A DNA stretch of 33,408 nt from a virus. Location of the stretch: the UHGV virus genome UHGV-0124208. The stretch is one strand, 5' to 3'. Below, piece after piece: positions 21,647 to 31,745 of the stretch (position 1 is the stretch's first letter; each line of letters opens with the position of its first letter). The position numbers were made by a program, and so were the translations under genes. The notes below the pieces were generated by a model. That model saw nothing but the letters and a program-made list of their open reading frames with translations, did no database searches and was not told where the DNA came from.

Positions 21647-23416
21647 TCATACGTCAGGGGTAATCCAGTCGACTAAAGCCTCAATACTTTCGAAATCTGC
21701 ACAGATATCTGAAAGAGGTTGTGTATCTGCTTTTGTTTTGAAATCAGCCCATACTGATTCATTTTTTTCTGTAAGACCCAAATGGTTTTCTATCGAACCA
21801 TTTAGCCAAATCCAAATATTTGCATTTCTCAGTTTTGCGGCTAATGATGACAAAAATTCTCTGGCGCCGGGCTTTTGAGACATAATAGCAAATGCTTCAG
21901 CTGCGGTAGTGTTACTACCCTTTGTAGGCAAACCGGATCCATCGAGAGTGCATTCTCCATTAGCATGCATACTTCTCAAGATTTCTTTTAGTCGTAAAAT
22001 ATCCTCGTCATTATGTTCTAAGAAGTTGTTCCTTATTGCACCGCGGAACGCAAAATCTAAATCAACAATTGCTTTTGTAGGTATATCCATTGAATTTAGA
22101 ATTTGCATCGTTTTAGATATACTTTCAACGGACCCTGTTTCAATTAGTGCTATTTGCATCTGACCTAATGTTTTATTTTTAACTTTGTTAAAAATAAATG
22201 GGAGCAGAGTAGTCTCTGTTTTACCTTCTGTTAGTATTACATTGTTAGCAAACAAAACTTTTGAAGACTGTGTTAATGAAAATAAATGGGTTGCTTGTGC
22301 TGGTCGTTGTTCGATTACTTTATTGACTGCTTCTTTTAATGTTAATCTGCAATGAGTGCCACGCTGACTGTTTTTTCTGATTAACACAGTGTCTTTTGCT
22401 AAGTCAGAGGTAATCATTTGAGATGAATGGGTAGAGAAAATTATTTGATATCCATGATGAGATAGTGTTTTTAGAGATTCTCTAATTTGTTCGATAGCAA
22501 ATGGGTGAAGATATAACTCAGGTTCATCTATTAACAGTAGAGTAGTTGTTTTAATATCATCACCGTTGGTTATATCAGCTAAATGTCTTATTAGAGACAT
22601 CTGAATCGAACGCTGTGTGCCATGACCATAAGAAGAACAGTCACGAGCAATGCCGGGAAATGAATCTTCATATACTTTTACAGTCCCAGATTTAAATATA
22701 TCCTTGAAGTCAGGGAGTTCGAAGTGTAGTTTTAAACTTATCCCAGGGAAGAAATCAGCAAGTTTACTACTTATTGAATCATCAATATCATTGAGGTCCG
22801 ATATTCGTTTATTACCGGTTGCAGTCATTCTTCTATTAACGGCATTTAAATGGCTTAGTATCCTTTGAGTGTGCTTCTCTTCTATTTTGCAACTCAATTC
22901 TGCCAGCAACTTACCTATTGTAGTTCCTGTTTTTGATTTTGAAGAATCATCCGCTGCATTTTCCATTGCACCTATACGTATTGGGTCTGGAAATAAAGCT
23001 TTTATCGCATTCTCAATACCCGTTGGTGATGTCCTGAATTCGTTATTTTCTGGGTTTTTAATTAATAATCTGACGTCTTTTGCACTTTGAGCACCAACAG
23101 TCTGTTGACGCTTAAATATCAATACCCCATCAATAATGTAGGGTGAAATTCTAGTTCTGTTTTCTTCTGTTAAAGCTGACAAAATATCTTCAGTAATACC
23201 CTTAACTGTACCTATAACTTCTATAGGGTTATCTGGATTAGTATAATCATCAGAGGACAAAAGTTTTTTCTTAAAAAGCCATTCAATAGCATTTAAAATC
23301 GTTGACTTACCAGCATTGTTGTAACCGATTAAAGGCGTGAATGAAGAAAAATTGATATCAATATCTTTGCAAGATCTAAAGTTTTTTATAGAAATCTTTG
23401 AAAGATGATGATTCAT
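21647..23416 (-). CDS. old: OLD-family ATP-dependent nuclease (N-terminal ABC-type ATPase + C-terminal Toprim), P2 Old-like, single-gene
   Basis: 589-aa ORF. N-terminal Walker A in ISIKNFRSCK...LIGYNNAGKSTILNAI; central FGHGTQRSIQM and LLIDEPELYLHP (Walker B-like); C-terminal VILTEGKTET...VDLDF Toprim-like acidic motifs. AT-rich relative to flanks. Located between cI and int. Confidence 0.75.
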   Translation of the reverse strand: MNHHLSKISIKNFRSCKDIDINFSSFTPLIGYNNAGKSTILNAIEWLFKKKLLSSDDYTNPDNPIEVIGTVKGITEDILSALTEENRTRISPYIIDGVLIFKRQQTVGAQSAKDVRLLIKNPENNEFRTSPTGIENAIKALFPDPIRIGAMENAADDSSKSKTGTTIGKLLAELSCKIEEKHTQRILSHLNAVNRRMTATGNKRISDLNDIDDSISSKLADFFPGISLKLHFELPDFKDIFKSGTVKVYEDSFPGIARDCSSYGHGTQRSIQMSLIRHLADITNGDDIKTTTLLLIDEPELYLHPFAIEQIRESLKTLSHHGYQIIFSTHSSQMITSDLAKDTVLIRKNSQRGTHCRLTLKEAVNKVIEQRPAQATHLFSLTQSSKVLFANNVILTEGKTETTLLPFIFNKVKNKTLGQMQIALIETGSVESISKTMQILNSMDIPTKAIVDLDFAFRGAIRNNFLEHNDEDILRLKEILRSMHANGECTLDGSGLPTKGSNTTAAEAFAIMSQKPGAREFLSSLAAKLRNANIWIWLNGSIENHLGLTEKNESVWADFKTKADTQPLSDICADFESIEALVDWITPDV

Positions 23417-23459: not shown

Positions 23460-24398
23460 TTATTGTATTGTTAAGATAATGCTGGCTATAATTTGAATAT
23501 CCTCAATGGAACACTCAAAATCCTTACTCCCACCAGAAACAAGAATTTTGTTCTTAGGTAAACGAGTTAACTCTTTTAAAGATAACTCATTGTCAATTCC
23601 TACTAACCATTTTCCATCTCTAATTAGGTGAAATTCTTTATCACATATGACATGTTTTTCTCCATTGCTTACAAACATCAAGCTGCTAGTTTCTTGCTTC
23701 GGAAGTAGACACCGATCCATGGATAAAAAACCTGACTCGACAAGCACGCCATTGACCAAATTGAACTTATTTAAAATTACAGTGTTTTCTTCTTGTGAAC
23801 TATTTGGTGTTTCGATTCCTGTAACTAGCCAGGCGAGATCCGCTTTGGTTTCTAATGCGCATTTAATCACCCAATCCGCAGGGAAAGAATCTCGCATGTA
23901 TCGTGTGGCTAATGTGCTTTTTGAAATACCAAGGTGGTCGGCTAAGGCTTGGCGGGTTTTAAACCCGTAAGCATTAACAATCCTCTCTATCGCGGCTTTT
24001 CCTCCGTTAGTAAGCTCAATGTGATTCTCAATGCGGCGCTTAAAGGATGATTGATGAGCGTTGCTGTTAAACCCCTCATGTGGGACTGTTTCATCATGTT
24101 GTTCCACATAAGGGGGGAAACTTTCTTCTGCATTGTTAGAACCAAAGGCCAGCCATTCTAGGGATGCGCCAGTTTCCATTGAACATATAACAACCCAATC
24201 AGCAGGGAAGGTATCGCGTGCATATCTATTAGCCATTGTGCTTTGTGAAATACCAAGATGCTTACAGAAGGCTTGGCGTGATTTGAAACCATAGGCCTTG
24301 AGTATCCTCTCAATGACTTTTTGCCCTCCACGATTCTGCATGACCATAGCTTTCAGACTATCTTCAATATGGCGAAATGTGATTTTTTGAGTTGACAT
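23460..24398 (-). CDS. cI: Immunity repressor CI, coliphage 186 type, with a tandemly duplicated N-terminal DNA-binding domain
   Basis: 312-aa ORF. Residues about 28-85 (VIERILKAYGFKSRQAFCKHLGISQSTMANRYARDTFPADWVVICSMETGASLEWLAFG) and about 128-185 (AIERIVNAYGFKTRQALADHLGISKSTLATRYMRDSFPADWVIKCALETKADLAWLVTG) are two copies of the 186 CI N-terminal domain motif; about 125-aa C-terminal domain. Divergent from apl-cII. Confidence 0.75.
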   Translation of the reverse strand: MSTQKITFRHIEDSLKAMVMQNRGGQKVIERILKAYGFKSRQAFCKHLGISQSTMANRYARDTFPADWVVICSMETGASLEWLAFGSNNAEESFPPYVEQHDETVPHEGFNSNAHQSSFKRRIENHIELTNGGKAAIERIVNAYGFKTRQALADHLGISKSTLATRYMRDSFPADWVIKCALETKADLAWLVTGIETPNSSQEENTVILNKFNLVNGVLVESGFLSMDRCLLPKQETSSLMFVSNGEKHVICDKEFHLIRDGKWLVGIDNELSLKELTRLPKNKILVSGGSKDFECSIEDIQIIASIILTIQ

Positions 24399-26063: not shown

Positions 26064-26290
26064 TGGCTGATGCAATGGATCTTGTACAGCAGCGCGTTGA
26101 AGAAGAACGCCAGCGCCATATCCGTGCTGCCCGTGCCAAAACGCCGGGCGTGTCCCGCGTGCTTTGCATTGAGTGTGAAGCGCCAATTCCGCCAGCACGC
26201 CGCCGCGCCATTCCAGGTGTGCAGCTTTGCATTACCTGTCAGGAAATCGCAGAGCTGAAAGGCAAACATTACAACGGAGGTGCTGTATGA
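26063..26290 (+). CDS. TraR/DksA-family C4 zinc-finger protein
   Basis: 75-aa ORF with CIECEAPIP...CITCQ (CxxC-N17-CxxC), characteristic of phage TraR-like proteins (P2 orf82-like position). Confidence 0.75.
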   Translation: MADAMDLVQQRVEEERQRHIRAARAKTPGVSRVLCIECEAPIPPARRRAIPGVQLCITCQEIAELKGKHYNGGAV

Positions 26291-27144
26291 GCACCATCCT
26301 GAAATGGGCGGGAAATAAAACCGCAATTATGTCCGAACTGAAAAAACACCTTCCTGCTGGCCCGCGACTGGTTGAACCTTTCGCGGGTTCCTGTGCTGTG
26401 ATGATGGAGACGGATTATCCAAGCTATCTGGTTGCGGATATTAATCCTGATTTAATCAACCTCTATAAAAAGGTTGCCGCTGATTGTGAATCGTTTATAT
26501 CTCGCGCCAGAGTTTTATTTGAGATCGCAAACAGGGAGGTGGCTTATTACAACATAAGGCAGGAGTTTAATTACTCCACTGAAATTACTGATTTCATGAA
26601 AGCGGTATATTTCCTGTATCTCAATCGTCACGGTTACCGTGGTTTATGTCGCTATAACAAGAGCAGGCATTTCAACATTCCCTACGGTAATTATAAAAAT
26701 CCGTATTTCCCTGAAAAAGAACTTCGCACATTTGCAGAAAAAGCCCAGCGAGCAACGTTTGTCTGCGCCAGCTTTGATGAAACGCTGGCGATGTTGAAGG
26801 CGGGGGATGTGGTGTATTGCGATCCGCCGTATGACGGTACGTTTTCCGGCTATCACACTGATGGTTTCACTGAAGATGACCAGTATCACCTGGCATCCGT
26901 TCTTGAACATCGGTCATCAGAAGGACATCCGGTCATTGTTTCTAACAATGACACATCCCTGATTCGTTCGCTGTATCGCAATTTTACTCACCACTATATC
27001 AAGGCAAAACGCAGCATCGGCGTGTCAGCTGGCGAGGGTAAATCTGCAACAGAAATCATTGCTGTTTCCGGGCCGAGTTGCTGGTTGGGATTTGATCCTT
27101 CGCGTGGCGTGGATAGTTCTGCCGTGTACGGAGTGTGTGTATGA
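26287..27144 (+). CDS. DNA N6-adenine methyltransferase (Dam/D12 class)
   Basis: From ATG 26287: [11 protein letters not shown]...EPFAGSCAV... (AdoMet-binding region) and VYCDPPYDG (DPPY catalytic motif); overlaps the upstream stop (ATGA) and the A start. Confidence 0.85.
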
Positions 27145-29555
27145 GTCATGACGATATGAACAATTGCAGCGGCTTTAACGAGGCCGCCGCAGCATTTTCA
27201 TGGAACGGCCCGAAAAAGGCCATTAACCCTTATCTGGACCCGGCGGAAGTTGCGCCGGAGTCTGCACTTTCAAACCTGATCACTCTGTACGCTGCCGATA
27301 ACGAGCAGGAACAACTGCGCCGCGAGGCACTGAGTGAGCAGGTCTGGGAGCGTTATTTCTTTAATGAATCCCGTGATCCTGTCCAGCGCGAAATGGAGCA
27401 GGATAAGCTCATTAGCCGGGCAAAGCTGGCGCATGAGCAGCAGCGTTTTAATCCGGACATGGTCATTCTGGCGGACGTAAACGCCCAGCCTTCCCATATC
27501 AGCAAGCCGCTGATGCAACGTATTGAATACTTCAGCAGCCTGGGCAGGCCAAAGGCTTATTCCCGCTATTTGCGTGAGACGATTAAGCCATGTCTGGAGC
27601 GACTGGATTGTGTACGTGACAGTCAGCTATCTGTTTCTTTCCGTTTTATGGCAAGCCATCAAGGGCTGGAGGGTCTGCTGATCCTGCCTGAAATGAGCCA
27701 GGATCAGGTGAAACGCCTGTCCACCCTGGTAGCAGCGCATATGAGCATGTGTCTTGAGGACGCTTGTGGTGATTTGTATGCCACCGATGACGTTAAGCCA
27801 GAAGAAATCCGCAAGACATGGGAAAAGGTGGCAGCGGAAACCCTGCGTCTGGATGTTATCCCGCCTGCGTTTGAGAAACTTCGTCGGAAAAGAAACCGCC
27901 GCAAACCAGTGCCCTATGAACTCATCCCGGGTTCGCTGGCGCGTATGTTGTGTGCCGACTGGTGGTATCGGAAATTATGGAAGATGCGTTGCGAATGGCG
28001 GGAAGAGCAGTTGCGTGCTGTCTGCCTGGTCAGCAAAAAAGCATCCCCCTATGTCAGCTATGAAGCCGTGATGCATAAACGTGAGCAGCGCCGTAAGTCG
28101 CTGGAGTTTTTTCGTTCTCATGAACTGGTGAACGAAGACGGCGACACGCTGGATATGGAAGATGTGGTAAACGCCAGCAGCAGCAACCCGGCGCATCGCC
28201 GCAATGAGATGATGGCCTGTGTTAAAGGTCTGGAGCTTATCGCGGAAATGCGCAGTGACTGTGCCGTTTTCTACACTATCACCTGTCCGTCGCGTTTCCA
28301 TTCCACGCTCAATAACGGCAGACCAAACCCGACCTGGACAAACGCGACGGTAAGACAAAGTAGCGATTATCTGGTCGGCATGTTTGCTGCATTTCGTAAG
28401 GCTATGCATAAAGCCGAGTTGCGCTGGTATGGCGTGCGGGTAGCTGAGCCGCATCATGACGGTACTGTGCACTGGCATCTCATGTGTTTCATGCGTAAAA
28501 AAGACCGCCGCGCCATCACTGCATTACTGCGTAAGTTTGCCATCCGTGAAGACCGCGAGGAGCTGGGCAATAACACGGGACCACGCTTTAAGTCTGAGCT
28601 GATAAACCCGCGCAAAGGTACGCCAACAAGCTATATCGCGAAATACATCAGTAAGAACATTGACGGGCGTGGTCTGGCTGGGGAGATCAGCAAGGAAACG
28701 GGTAAATCCCTGCGTGATAACGCTGAATACGTTAATGCCTGGGCGTCTCTGCATCGTGTTCAGCAATTCCGCTTCTTTGGCATTCCGGGGCGTCAGGCTT
28801 ACCGTGAACTGCGATTGCTGGCTGGTCAGGCGGCAAGGCAACAGGGTGACAAAAAAGCAGGTGCGCCGGTACTGGATAACCCGCGTCTTGATGCAATCCT
28901 GGCTGCTGCTGATGCTGGTTGTTTTGCCACCTACATCATGAAGCAGGGCGGCGTTCTGGTTCCCCGCAAATATCACCTCATCAGAACTGCTTATGAAATC
29001 AACGAAGAACCGACCGCATATGGCGATCACGGTATTCGTATTTATGGCATCTGGTCACCCATTGCAGAGGGCAAGATCTGCACTCATGCGGTGAAGTGGA
29101 AAATGGTTCGTAAGGCCGTTGACGTTCAGGAGGCGGCAGCCGACCAGGGCGCTTGCGCCCCTTGGACTCGTGGCAATAACTGTCCCCTTGCTGAAAATTT
29201 GAACCAACAAGGGAAAGACAAATCAGCTGATGGGGACTCCAGAACGGATATTACCCGTATGAATGACAAGGAGTTGCACGATTACCTGCACAGTATGAGC
29301 AAAAAAGAGCGCCGGGAACTGGCTGCAAGGTTACGCCAGGTGAAACCGAAACGGCGTAAAGACTACAAACAGCGAATTACAGACCATCAGCGACAGCAGC
29401 TCGTCTATGAACTGAAGTCCAGGGGATTTGATGGCAGCGAGAAAGAAGTCGATTTGCTCCTTCGCGGCGGCAGTATTCCGTCAGGAGCAGGCCTGCGTAT
29501 CTTCTATCGGAACCAGCGTCTGAAGGAAGATGATAAGTGGCGGAACCTGTATTAA
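27141..29555 (+). CDS. A: Replication initiator gpA (rolling-circle HUH endonuclease)
   Basis: About 804-aa ORF (ATG 27141) containing [13 protein letters not shown] (HUH-type motif of P2 gpA-family initiators); position as P2 A. Confidence 0.85.
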
Positions 29556-29649
29556 TTACGCGGGTTAACAATTCGTGCTCTTAATAATACCAGGCATATC
29601 AGGCCGATGAACGTAAAAAAACGTTTTACATCAGTAAGATTATTATATA

Positions 29650-29665
29650 CTGTAAATATAAACAG
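29650..29665. promoter_or_regulatory. LexA operator (SOS box) upstream of the DinI/Tum-like operon
   Basis: CTGTAAATATAAACAG = CTGT-N8-ACAG with an AT-rich centre, flanked TA...TG (consensus TACTGTATATATATACAGTA); 43 bp upstream of ATG 29708; a -35-like TTTACA at 29625-29630. Confidence 0.75.
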
Positions 29666-29707
29666 TGGTTATGTATACAGTATTGTTTTGGTGTCATAGG
29701 AGGAAAG

Positions 29708-29896
29708 ATGCAGGACTATTTTTTGGAGTCTTTGAAGCTCCAGCGCATTGATTTTTTTCTTAAGCTTGTAGCGGCTAGTGAGTGTAGTGATGAAGAGAAG
29801 GGGCTGGCTCTGCAGTGGGTTTCTGAATTGACTGATGAACTCATGGCAAAAATCAGAAGCCACGAATACAACCGCTCAATGGATGTCATCAGCTGA
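29708..29896 (+). CDS. Small SOS-regulated protein, first gene of the Tum-like module (function unknown; candidate antirepressor component)
   Basis: 62-aa ORF with RBS AGGAGG, directly downstream of the LexA box. Confidence 0.55.
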   Translation: MQDYFLESLKLQRIDFFLKLVAASECSDEEKGLALQWVSELTDELMAKIRSHEYNRSMDVIS

Positions 29897-29906
29897 GGTG
29901 ACTTTT

Positions 29907-30140
29907 ATGCGCATTGAAATAATGATCGATAAAGAGCAGAAGATTAGCCAGTCTACCCTGGACGCACTTGAATCCGAGCTTTACCGCAATCTGCGCCCCC
30001 TGTATCCCAAAACGGTAATTCGCATTCGCAAAGGTAGCTCTAACGGTGTGGAACTAACCGGACTGCAACTGGATGAAGAAAGAAAACAAGTGATGAAAAT
30101 TATGCAGAAGGTGTGGGAGGACGACAGCTGGCTGCATTAA
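29907..30140 (+). CDS. DinI-family protein (Tum C-terminal-domain-like)
   Basis: From ATG 29907: MRIEIMIDKEQKISQSTLDALESELYRNLRPLYPKTVIRIRKGSSNGVELTGLQLDEERKQVMKIMQKVWEDDSWLH, which aligns by eye with E. coli DinI (MRIEVTIAK...; ...ILQETWESADDW). Confidence 0.75.
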   Translation: MRIEIMIDKEQKISQSTLDALESELYRNLRPLYPKTVIRIRKGSSNGVELTGLQLDEERKQVMKIMQKVWEDDSWLH

Positions 30141-30332
30141 GAAATGTTGCCCCCAGGAGGATTCATTCTGATGGGGGCTAGTTTGGGCAATGAGTGAAAT
30201 AAGGCGTAAGGTGGGCGGTTATTTTGATAAGTGATCGTCCGCTTTGTGTCAGAAGCAGAAGTGGGAGTGTCTGAGACTCTCTAAAAGTTGATGATTCACT
30301 TACAAAACCATTTTCCTGATGGATGCTTACAC

Positions 30333-30668
30333 TTACGAATGATCATTCTGTTTAGTCTTCATGAGAAAATCCCGAATCTTTGCCAAGTTTGAATTTTCGG
30401 GGATTGAATCCATGTACGGATCACGCTCAAACACTAATTGCTCAGATTCAACGAAAGCCTGCCACTCTACTGGGTCTAGCTCAAATCCCATTGCTGTCAT
30501 ATCACTTTCATCTTCCCCCTCGATCCAGTGGACTAAATAAAACAATTCATCATCAGGAGAATCATCCTCACCATCAACAATATCAACATCGGTTACAGTG
30601 ATACGTAGGGTGGGATCGATTTTTGAGACATAAATTCCTAACTGTGGTATAGGGGGAATATTGTTCAT
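30333..30668 (-). CDS. Highly acidic small protein of unknown function (accessory / moron gene)
   Basis: 111-aa minus-strand ORF with a strong RBS (AAAGGAGTTTCC before ATG); D/E-rich (e.g. DVDIVDGEDDSPDDE, EGEDESD); AT-rich; lies between the DinI-like gene and the putative cos site. Confidence 0.65.
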   Translation of the reverse strand: MNNIPPIPQLGIYVSKIDPTLRITVTDVDIVDGEDDSPDDELFYLVHWIEGEDESDMTAMGFELDPVEWQAFVESEQLVFERDPYMDSIPENSNLAKIRDFLMKTKQNDHS

Positions 30669-31047
30669 GGAAACTCCTTTTATTGGTGTTTGCTATTTGA
30701 ATAAAAATACGCCAAACAGAGTGTTAACTGTGAATATGGAAAGAATCGTTGTAAGTACCCCGCTTAGGTGTCCCATTCTATTTTAGAGGTTCTCGTGCAT
30801 ATGGATTATGTTATCTGAAAGTTAACTTCCGCTTCCCGTTCACAGCGAACATTCATCTTTGTAAACCCGTATGATCCGTTTTTCAAGTGGCCATTCAGAT
30901 ACGGATTTTCACTTCCTTGACAGTGCATGACTATGCTGCATGAAATCGCATGATCGATTGAGGATCGTCTTTGCTCAGATCCGCCAGAACTGGCGGGCTT
31001 TTGCTCATGTCATGCATGTGCATGAAAACCACTGCATAAAGCGGGCA

Positions 31048-31066
31048 GGCGTGGCGGGGATACGAG
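31048..31066. other. Candidate cos (cohesive-end) site
   Basis: GGCGTGGCGGGGATACGAG: the first 13 nt match the 19-nt cohesive end I recall for 186 (GGCGTGGCGGGGAAAGCAT; P2 GGCGAGGCGGGGAAAGCAC). Lies in the only sizeable non-coding stretch between A and Q. The last 6 nt differ, so the exact ends are uncertain. Confidence 0.45.
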
Positions 31067-31155
31067 CGCGCGCTGATGGGGGACGCAGTGCTTTTGGCAT
31101 AGTTATGAGGTAGAATTTCAAAATACTTTTTAGCGCTGTTGGAGGTATAGACAAA

Positions 31156-31701
31156 ATGGACGTTATAACTGGAGTTGCAGAGTTTTTTCGAAAAGTACCT
31201 GCAGCATTTCTTGTGGCTATTACATGTGTTTTAGGTCTTATACTTTTTCTGCCAGACTCTTTGGCAGTAAAAGTGGCTGTTGATGGCTTTCGTAATGAGT
31301 ATAGGATTTTTATTGGACCTGCATTTTTACTGTCTGTATCTTATTTAGTTGCAAGAGTCTATCTCTCTTTCTATGACTTACTTGGTGAAAGGCAGGCTAA
31401 GAAGGTACGCACTTCCTACCTTGAGAAGCTAACAGCAGAAGAAAAAGGATATTTAAAGTCTTATATTACCGAAGGTGTTAATTCACTTATGTGTGGGCCT
31501 GAGGATGGGGTCATGGGGGGACTTGTGGCTAAGGGGATTACTTATAGAGCCACCAGTGTTGGGGATATGATCTACGGTTTTGCTTTCAACTTACAGCCAT
31601 GGGCGCGTGAACATTTAGAGAAAAATAGTCATTTATTAGATGGGGCTATTGGGCGTGCAATGACTCCAAGAGAAAAATTAAACTTTAGATTGGGACGCTA
31701 A
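31156..31701 (+). CDS. Membrane protein with two N-terminal TM helices, unknown function (accessory gene between cos and Q)
   Basis: 181-aa ORF with RBS GGAGG; hydrophobic segments AAFLVAITCVLGLILFLP and IFIGPAFLLSVSYLVARVYL followed by a soluble domain; AT-rich; followed by a strong hairpin. Confidence 0.65.
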   Translation: MDVITGVAEFFRKVPAAFLVAITCVLGLILFLPDSLAVKVAVDGFRNEYRIFIGPAFLLSVSYLVARVYLSFYDLLGERQAKKVRTSYLEKLTAEEKGYLKSYITEGVNSLMCGPEDGVMGGLVAKGITYRATSVGDMIYGFAFNLQPWAREHLEKNSHLLDGAIGRAMTPREKLNFRLGR

Positions 31702-31730
31702 CCAGTCACACATTACCAATGTGTGACTGG
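31702..31730. terminator. Perfect 13-bp stem / 3-nt loop hairpin between the convergent 181-aa gene and Q (putative bidirectional terminator)
   Basis: CCAGTCACACATT-acc-AATGTGTGACTGG read directly, followed on the plus strand by a T-rich run (TGGTGGTTATTTCTTTTATT). Confidence 0.6.
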
Positions 31731-31745
31731 TGGTGGTTATTTCTT

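Follow-up and report, generated by a model that had tools for sequence, protein, structure and literature searches.

The window analyzed here, the 33,408-nucleotide viral genome UHGV-0124208 read 5' to 3' on one strand, is a complete prophage of the P2/186 type and a close relative of Salmonella phage Fels-2. The segment at positions 29625-30140 is very probably the SOS-induction operon of this Fels-2-like prophage, in which a LexA-repressed promoter precedes an antirepressor gene and a DinI-like gene. It follows the replication gene A (27135-29555) and is itself followed by cargo genes and the portal gene; this placement, 3' of gene A where the early region ends, is common to 186, PSP3 and Fels-2. 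Such a circuit would explain how a prophage whose repressor is not self-cleaved responds to DNA damage. The two-gene layout is already known from Fels-2 and PSP3, and is thus real but ordinary. What the present comparison appears to add is modest, namely a double SOS box, a dispensable DinI gene and a putative antirepressor that is far more conserved than its presumed target, the repressor CI.

The double SOS box and the likely promoter

A reading of the DNA made from the sequence alone (hereafter the sequence-only reading) had placed a near-consensus LexA operator upstream of a 62-residue open reading frame (ORF), and the operator was recovered in our analysis. Box 1, CTGTAAATATAAACAG (29650-29665, + strand), was assigned from its core pattern and its conservation; it is the sole CTGT-N8-ACAG match in the window and ends 42 nucleotides 5' of the ATG of the first ORF, hereafter ORF1. 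This pattern by itself is not rare, with 0.6 matches expected by chance and at least one match in 46 of 100 shuffled sequences. The extended 20-mer TACTGTAAATATAAACAGTG (29648-29667) agrees with the LexA consensus in 17 of its 20 positions, a degree of fit seen in none of the 100 shuffles. Related loci were collected by scanning one genome per species with a narrower alignment, as the wide alignment (A1) was too diverse for a locus search; the scan gave 37 loci encoding ORF1 relatives, and the 37 sequences used for the box counts comprise 35 of these loci together with Fels-2 and the window. In all 37 sequences, the box 1 upstream of the ORF1 homologue retains at least seven of the eight core bases, and in 28 it has all eight.

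The sequence-only reading missed a second LexA-like box, GTGGTTATGTATACAG (29665-29680, + strand), which has six of the eight core bases and an intact ACAG. Box 2 takes the form of GTGG or GTGT, N8 and ACAG, and its first base is the last base of box 1, giving an overlap of one nucleotide. It is found in 22 of the 37 sequences, the window and Fels-2 among them. Judged by sequence, the two boxes form a colicin-type double overlapping SOS box. Colicin promoters, such as that of the colicin R gene (cra) of pColR, have the same operator layout, CTGT-N8-(A/C)CAG followed by GTGG-N8-ACAG with one shared base, and over 47 nucleotides of the window (29643-29689) the identity to the DNA immediately 5' of cra is 87.5%. 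At the colicin operators two LexA dimers bind and repression is very tight (PMC2994835). The colicin operator drives a plasmid-borne bacteriocin and lysis operon, whereas the operator in the window precedes a putative phage antirepressor operon.

The likely -35 hexamer, TTTACA (29625-29630, + strand), is preceded by an A-tract and is kept as (T)TTTAC-A across an alignment of 35 related upstream regions. The likely -10 region, TATACTGT (29646-29653, + strand), contains either the hexamer TACTGT, as in the p95 promoter of phage 186, or the overlapping TATACT. The A-tract, the -35 hexamer and TATACTGT are conserved, the last in nearly all related loci, and the 17-nucleotide spacer between them is variable. 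The distance from the -35 hexamer to TACTGT is 17 nucleotides here, compared to 18 nucleotides between TTCACA and TACTGT in the annotated 186 p95. In p95, the annotated -10 hexamer is the left end of the LexA 20-mer, which is the same layout as that of the promoter in the window. The -10 assignment is therefore a likely one, drawn from this comparison and from conservation. RNA folding of the ORF1 leader revealed no stable structure.

Two genes with separate start signals

In agreement with the sequence-only reading, the 62-residue ORF is followed by a gene for a DinI-family protein. ORF1 (29708-29896, + strand) starts with the ATG at 29708 behind an AGGAGG at 29698-29703 and ends with the stop codon at 29894-29896. 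ORF2 (29907-30140, + strand), which encodes a TumB-like DinI-family protein of 77 residues, begins 10 nucleotides after ORF1 in a different frame, behind a GAGG at 29895-29898. A mechanical list of reading frames gave a longer version of ORF2 of 101 residues from 29835; the homologues and the Fels-2 annotation begin at MRIEI. A structure-mediated translational coupling between the two ORFs was considered and dropped, as the hairpin that covers the stop codon of ORF1 and the ribosome-binding site of ORF2 folds no better than shuffled sequences (z score of -0.98).

The ORF2 product covers positions 1-63 of the 63 positions of the Pfam DinI profile (PF06183), with an E value of 6.6e-23 and a score of 81.3 bits over a cut-off of 24.2. 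It also matches E. coli DinI (PDB 1GHH) with an E value of 2.7e-6, and its C-terminus VWEDDSW, which aligns with TWESADDW of E. coli DinI, carries the conserved acidic W-E-D/E motif. Since it scores 42.7 where the NCBIfam equivalog model of host DinI requires 111, we regard ORF2 as a phage paralogue rather than the host DinI. It shares 78% identity with TumB of PSP3, and about 41% with residues 71-145 of 186 Tum, the DinI-like C-terminal half of that protein.

ORF1 was compared with Tum by means of profiles built from the ORF1 family, from homologues of residues 1-70 of 186 Tum and from homologues of PSP3 TumA. With hhalign, the ORF1 profile aligned with that of the 186 Tum N-terminal family at a probability of 95.3% and an E value of 2.2e-8 over columns 4-44 of both, and the 186 Tum N-terminal profile aligned with that of the PSP3 TumA family at 90.6% and 1.3e-6. 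The families have a common core that reads roughly E-x-(V/L)-x-(L/I)-(Q/E)-R-(I/V)-(D/E)-x-x-A-R-L-x-A-x-x-x-C-x-x-x-D-(K/R)-E-(L/I)-A-(L/I)-x-(W/L)-I-A-E-(L/I). As judged from these profiles, ORF1 is homologous to the N-terminal, non-DinI-like half of Tum. The AlphaFold2 model of ORF1 presents a helical hairpin of two helices (residues 2-23 and 28-61), with the conserved cysteine in the turn and a predicted local distance difference test (pLDDT) score of 87. A Foldseek search of this model against the PDB gave nothing below an E value of 0.5.

When 1.84 billion representative proteins were searched exhaustively with HMMER, 67 clusters related to ORF1 were recovered, nearly all of them short stand-alone proteins of about 60-70 residues, and the named sources are almost all Enterobacterales. 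None of these 67 relatives has a C-terminal fusion to DinI, so that the ORF1 subfamily itself holds no fused "Rosetta stone". The close homologues of the N-terminal half of 186 Tum likewise include many stand-alone proteins of 63-78 residues (P0216, P0233, P0249 and others), some of which are named 'Tum protein' and some of which may be assembly fragments. The split form therefore exists within the 186-type subfamily too, and the fused Tum of 186 may perhaps be the less common form.

Comparison with known phages showed that the split of the Tum function into two ORFs, as proposed in the sequence-only reading, stands, while the novelty that it implied does not. The module DNA of Fels-2 in Salmonella LT2 is 96.9% identical to that of the window, with the same double SOS box at the same site after gene A; its two genes are STM2728, annotated as "hypothetical protein", and STM2726.1, annotated as "DinI family protein, similar to TumB of PSP3". 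In E. coli B/REL606, a P2-like prophage is 99.8% identical to the window over the module. ORF1 is 97% identical to STM2728 and 97-100% identical across the pair of Fels-2 and E. coli B, in which the ORF2 DinI protein is 100% identical. Phage PSP3 likewise has a LexA-boxed two-gene operon after gene A, in which the 60-residue tumA is annotated as "similar to 5' end of 186 tum; UV induction of prophage" and is followed by the DinI homologue tumB, "similar to dinI and 3' end of 186 tum". It differs from the window in that it has a single SOS box and a TumA that can barely be aligned with ORF1. Lemire et al. (2011; PMC3121763) describe tum as split by a stop codon in Fels-2 and PSP3, for which they cite Bunny et al. 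(2002), and they take the upstream gene of PSP3 as the antirepressor. Phage 186 resembles the window in its LexA-repressed promoter with a -10 hexamer overlapping the box, in the homology of both halves of Tum to ORF1 and ORF2 and in a CI target that does not cleave itself, but it differs in encoding one fused Tum of 146 residues behind one SOS box. Its record further lists internally initiated, truncated DinI-like products, with a separate start at an internal GTG, which are annotated as modulating induction.

This fused Tum allows for another interpretation, in which a single 186-like tum was broken by a stop codon or frameshift and left ORF1 and ORF2 behind as a decaying pseudogene, in a prophage that is not SOS-inducible. 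The different frames of ORF1 and ORF2, their distance of only 10 nucleotides and the frameshifted DinI copies in three relatives (L018, L021 and L039) would fit such decay. However, ORF1 and ORF2 each start at an ATG behind a Shine-Dalgarno sequence of their own, and the intact layout of two ORFs with a gap of 10-14 nucleotides recurs across many genera: it is present in about 17 of the 37 species-level loci and in the phages Fels-2, PSP3, SopEPhi and RE2010 as well as in Klebsiella phages. The length of 62 residues that ORF1 keeps in nearly all loci, at 71-98% identity, indicates purifying selection; the stand-alone homologues of the Tum N-terminal half and the separate initiation of the DinI-like part in 186 itself also argue against such decay. 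Moreover, Fels-2, which has the same layout, makes a lexA null mutation lethal according to PMC3121763 and PMC12626290; the latter, citing Bunny 2002, states that all Salmonella LT2 survivors of a lexA null mutation had lost Fels-2. We consider a decaying pseudogene extremely improbable, and take the two ORFs as very probably functional genes of an SOS-induction operon.

ORF1 homologues carry the name 'levan regulatory protein' or 'levan regulatory domain protein' in some databases (P0021, P0141 and P0424 among UniRef and GenBank names, and the phage record MK416009). We found no evidence tying the ORF1 family to levan regulation; the one paper located uses the name for rlsB and rlsC of Erwinia and gives no sequences. 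The label looks like a propagated misannotation.

Conservation of ORF1 and divergence of CI

The presumed target of ORF1 is the CI repressor of 312 residues encoded at 23460-24398 on the - strand. It matches Phage_CI_repr (PF07022) twice and Phage_CI_C (PF16452) once, and no peptidase family is among its Pfam matches, in contrast to the LexA/UmuD-like S24 domain by which a lambda-type repressor, induced via RecA-stimulated autocleavage, is recognized. CI is therefore of the 186 type with no evident autocleavage domain, as the sequence-only reading had stated. The LexA-repressed antirepressor of Tum type that was predicted on this basis is supported, at the level of sequence, by the p95-like layout of the promoter, the profile match of ORF1 to the N-terminal half of Tum, the identity of ORF2 to its C-terminal half and this type of CI. 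In this protein, the CI C-terminal domain is preceded by two tandem helix-turn-helix (HTH) domains that share 55% identity. Tandem HTH domains are also found in the CI of PSP3 and of Klebsiella phage 4LV2017, compared to the single HTH domain in CI of 186. The closest phage CI shares 59% identity with that of the window, which thus probably defines a distinct immunity type; in this, and in its tandem HTH domains, the window differs from the Fels-2/E. coli B pair. Identity to the CI of Fels-2, RE2010 and 4LV2017-type phages lies at 44-59%.

The conservation of the operator and of ORF1 across genera is observed directly, as are the sequence features and homologies given above. In the 37 loci, which come from Escherichia, Citrobacter, Enterobacter, Klebsiella, Serratia, Pantoea, Erwinia, Tatumella and other genera, the ORF1 relatives are 65-98% identical and nearly all 62 residues long. 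A DinI gene, apparently intact, follows ORF1 at a distance of +10 to +14 nucleotides in about 17 of the 37 loci. The gene is missing in 17 of the 37, and is visibly cut or frameshifted in L018, L021 and L039; the loci with an absent or frameshifted DinI gene are L008, L010, L018, L019, L021, L022, L026-L037, L039 and L040. Every locus that has no intact DinI gene retains the LexA box and ORF1, and where the gene is missing ORF1 is followed by a hairpin and then by unrelated cargo. Because DinI is often lost while ORF1 and the box are kept, we regard the latter two as the conserved core of the module and DinI as an accessory. In two of these loci, L034 and L037, a CI-like gene lies 1.5-1.8 kb 5' of the ORF1 homologue, compared to about 5-8 kb elsewhere, which suggests deleted or rearranged prophage remnants.

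This pattern of loss bears on the alternative that the DinI-like ORF2 is the real inducer, acting via RecA or directly on CI, and that ORF1 is an unrelated gene such as a 'levan regulatory protein'. DinI is indeed the only named domain in the module, the PHROGs database files the entire Tum family under DinI, and the levan label is attached to ORF1 homologues in the records listed above. Nevertheless, the DinI gene is absent or decayed in many related loci in which the LexA box and ORF1 are always kept, and ORF1 is related to the half of Tum that is not DinI-like. The truncated DinI-like products in the 186 record are annotated only as modulating induction, and the upstream gene of PSP3 is the one reported as the antirepressor in the passage of PMC3121763. 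In addition, CI has no peptidase match, so that no RecA-stimulated cleavage is evident for DinI to modulate, and the levan label has no traceable experimental link to the ORF1 family. It is thus very unlikely that ORF2 is the inducer, and ORF1 remains the favored antirepressor.

A comparison of 31 sequences revealed a mean pairwise identity of 83% for ORF1, 63% for the HTH domain of CI and 39% for the CI C-terminal domain. Identities of ORF1 and CI showed no positive correlation over these sequences (Spearman coefficients of -0.06 and -0.15). Among pairs with ORF1 proteins at least 95% identical, the CI C-terminal domains range from 24% to 99% identity with a median of 32%. If ORF1 binds CI, its likeliest target would be a conserved surface, which these sequences place most plausibly on the HTH domain.

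Several observations weigh against the assignment of ORF1 as an antirepressor of CI under a p95-like promoter. Co-variation of ORF1 and CI was expected and is absent: ORF1 proteins that are almost the same lie beside CI proteins with C-terminal domains of only 24-40% identity, a pattern not foreseen for a specific partner unless it recognizes a conserved surface of its target. A generic sigma-70 promoter scan called no promoter in the region, so that the promoter call rests on the comparison with 186 p95 and on conservation. BLASTP aligned ORF1 with neither 186 Tum nor PSP3 TumA, nor PSP3 TumA with 186 Tum, and profile comparison was therefore needed. Even so, the direct match of the ORF1 family to the TumA family is weak (E value of 0.008, probability of 5%), though in the same register; the link from ORF1 to TumA accordingly runs via 186 Tum. 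ORF1 has no Pfam, NCBIfam or PADLOC family, is named hypothetical in RefSeq, and matches PHROG 698, a family with no assigned function. Finally, the assignment of the PSP3 antirepressor is, in the passage of PMC3121763, a personal communication quoted second-hand.

The absence of co-variation would also fit an SOS-controlled cargo operon that modulates the host or serves in defence and has no role in induction, for example one in which a DinI-type protein dampens the SOS response to the advantage of the lysogen. The module does adjoin a variable cargo hot spot, which holds DUF8087 and SieB-like genes here and a retron in E. coli B, and LexA-controlled DinI homologues also occur in the Gifsy prophages (PMC3121763). 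Yet the module has a fixed position and homology to Tum in a phage group whose CI has no other known route of SOS induction, and the genetics of 186 and Fels-2 point to induction (PMC7708051, PMC3121763 and PMC12626290). Given this homology, the position and the genetics of the relatives, a cargo function is unlikely, indeed highly so, and we favor the role of the operon in SOS induction of the prophage.

Proposed induction circuit and neighboring genes

In phage 186, LexA-controlled Tum inhibits CI (PMC7708051). By analogy with the work on 186, PSP3 and Fels-2, we infer that LexA would bind the operator, that ORF1 would bind CI and that the present prophage would be SOS-inducible. We propose that in an undamaged cell LexA would occupy the double operator, composed of box 1 and the weaker box 2, which overlaps the -10 region and the presumed transcription start, and would keep the operon silent. 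Upon DNA damage, activated RecA would stimulate the self-cleavage of LexA and the p95-like promoter would fire, from which ORF1 and ORF2 would be made from separate start codons. The helical hairpin of ORF1 would bind the 186-type CI and stop it from binding its operators, thereby turning on the early lytic operon. ORF2 would be an accessory that probably tunes the activity of the RecA filament and the timing of the SOS signal.

The Gifsy antirepressors GfoA and GftA follow the same logic, in which a LexA-controlled antirepressor acts on a non-cleavable repressor and a dinI homologue is part of the operon (PMC3121763). They differ in that dinI comes first in the operon, and that the repressors belong to the gfoR/gtgR group, relatives of DicA and RacR (PMC3121763), compared to the putative 186-type CI target here.

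More speculatively, the Fels-2-type TumA-like protein, which keeps 71-98% identity across genera beside CI repressors that have diverged into many immunity types, might be a generalist antirepressor that recognizes a conserved surface of the CI HTH domain, so that one SOS-induced copy could induce co-resident Fels-2-like prophages of differing immunity. The double SOS box might then restrict commitment to a late stage, under sustained damage only, and the likeness of the boxes might mean that colicin plasmids and P2-like phages have exchanged regulatory DNA. We put forward this extension as doubtful.

The value of this analysis lies mostly in annotation, and the side observations are small additions to a known system. 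Genes of the ORF1 type, which RefSeq and phage records now list as "hypothetical" or, in error, as "levan regulatory protein", can reasonably be labelled TumA-like antirepressor. The circuit is relevant where Fels-2/P2-like prophages carry cargo, which here includes an Old homologue, a SieB-like gene and DUF8087, and in E. coli B a retron.

Directly downstream of ORF2 lies a GC-rich hairpin (30149-30178, + strand; folding energy of -20.3 kcal/mol, z score of -1.95), at a position comparable to that of t95a in 186. Its T-tract is weak and the terminator scan made no call, and it is only tentatively taken as a weak or partial terminator. A variable cargo hot spot spans 30141-31745 between the DinI gene and the portal gene. 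In the window, the hot spot contains the gene of a DUF8087 protein of 111 residues (30333-30668, - strand) and that of a SieB-like superinfection-exclusion protein of 181 residues (31156-31701, + strand; Pfam E value of 4.5e-25). The same spot holds DUF8087 and a St85-family retron system in E. coli B, and two other genes, STM2726 and STM2723.1, in Fels-2.

Rfam and tRNA scans of the window gave no matches. A homologue of the P2 exclusion nuclease Old, a protein of 589 residues with ATPase and TOPRIM domains (21647-23416, - strand; PADLOC Old, E value of 6e-234), is encoded between the integrase gene and cI. In addition, as in Fels-2, the gene of a Dam-type N6-adenine DNA methyltransferase (26227-27144, + strand; Pfam E value of 1e-75) lies directly 5' of gene A and overlaps the start of that replication gene.

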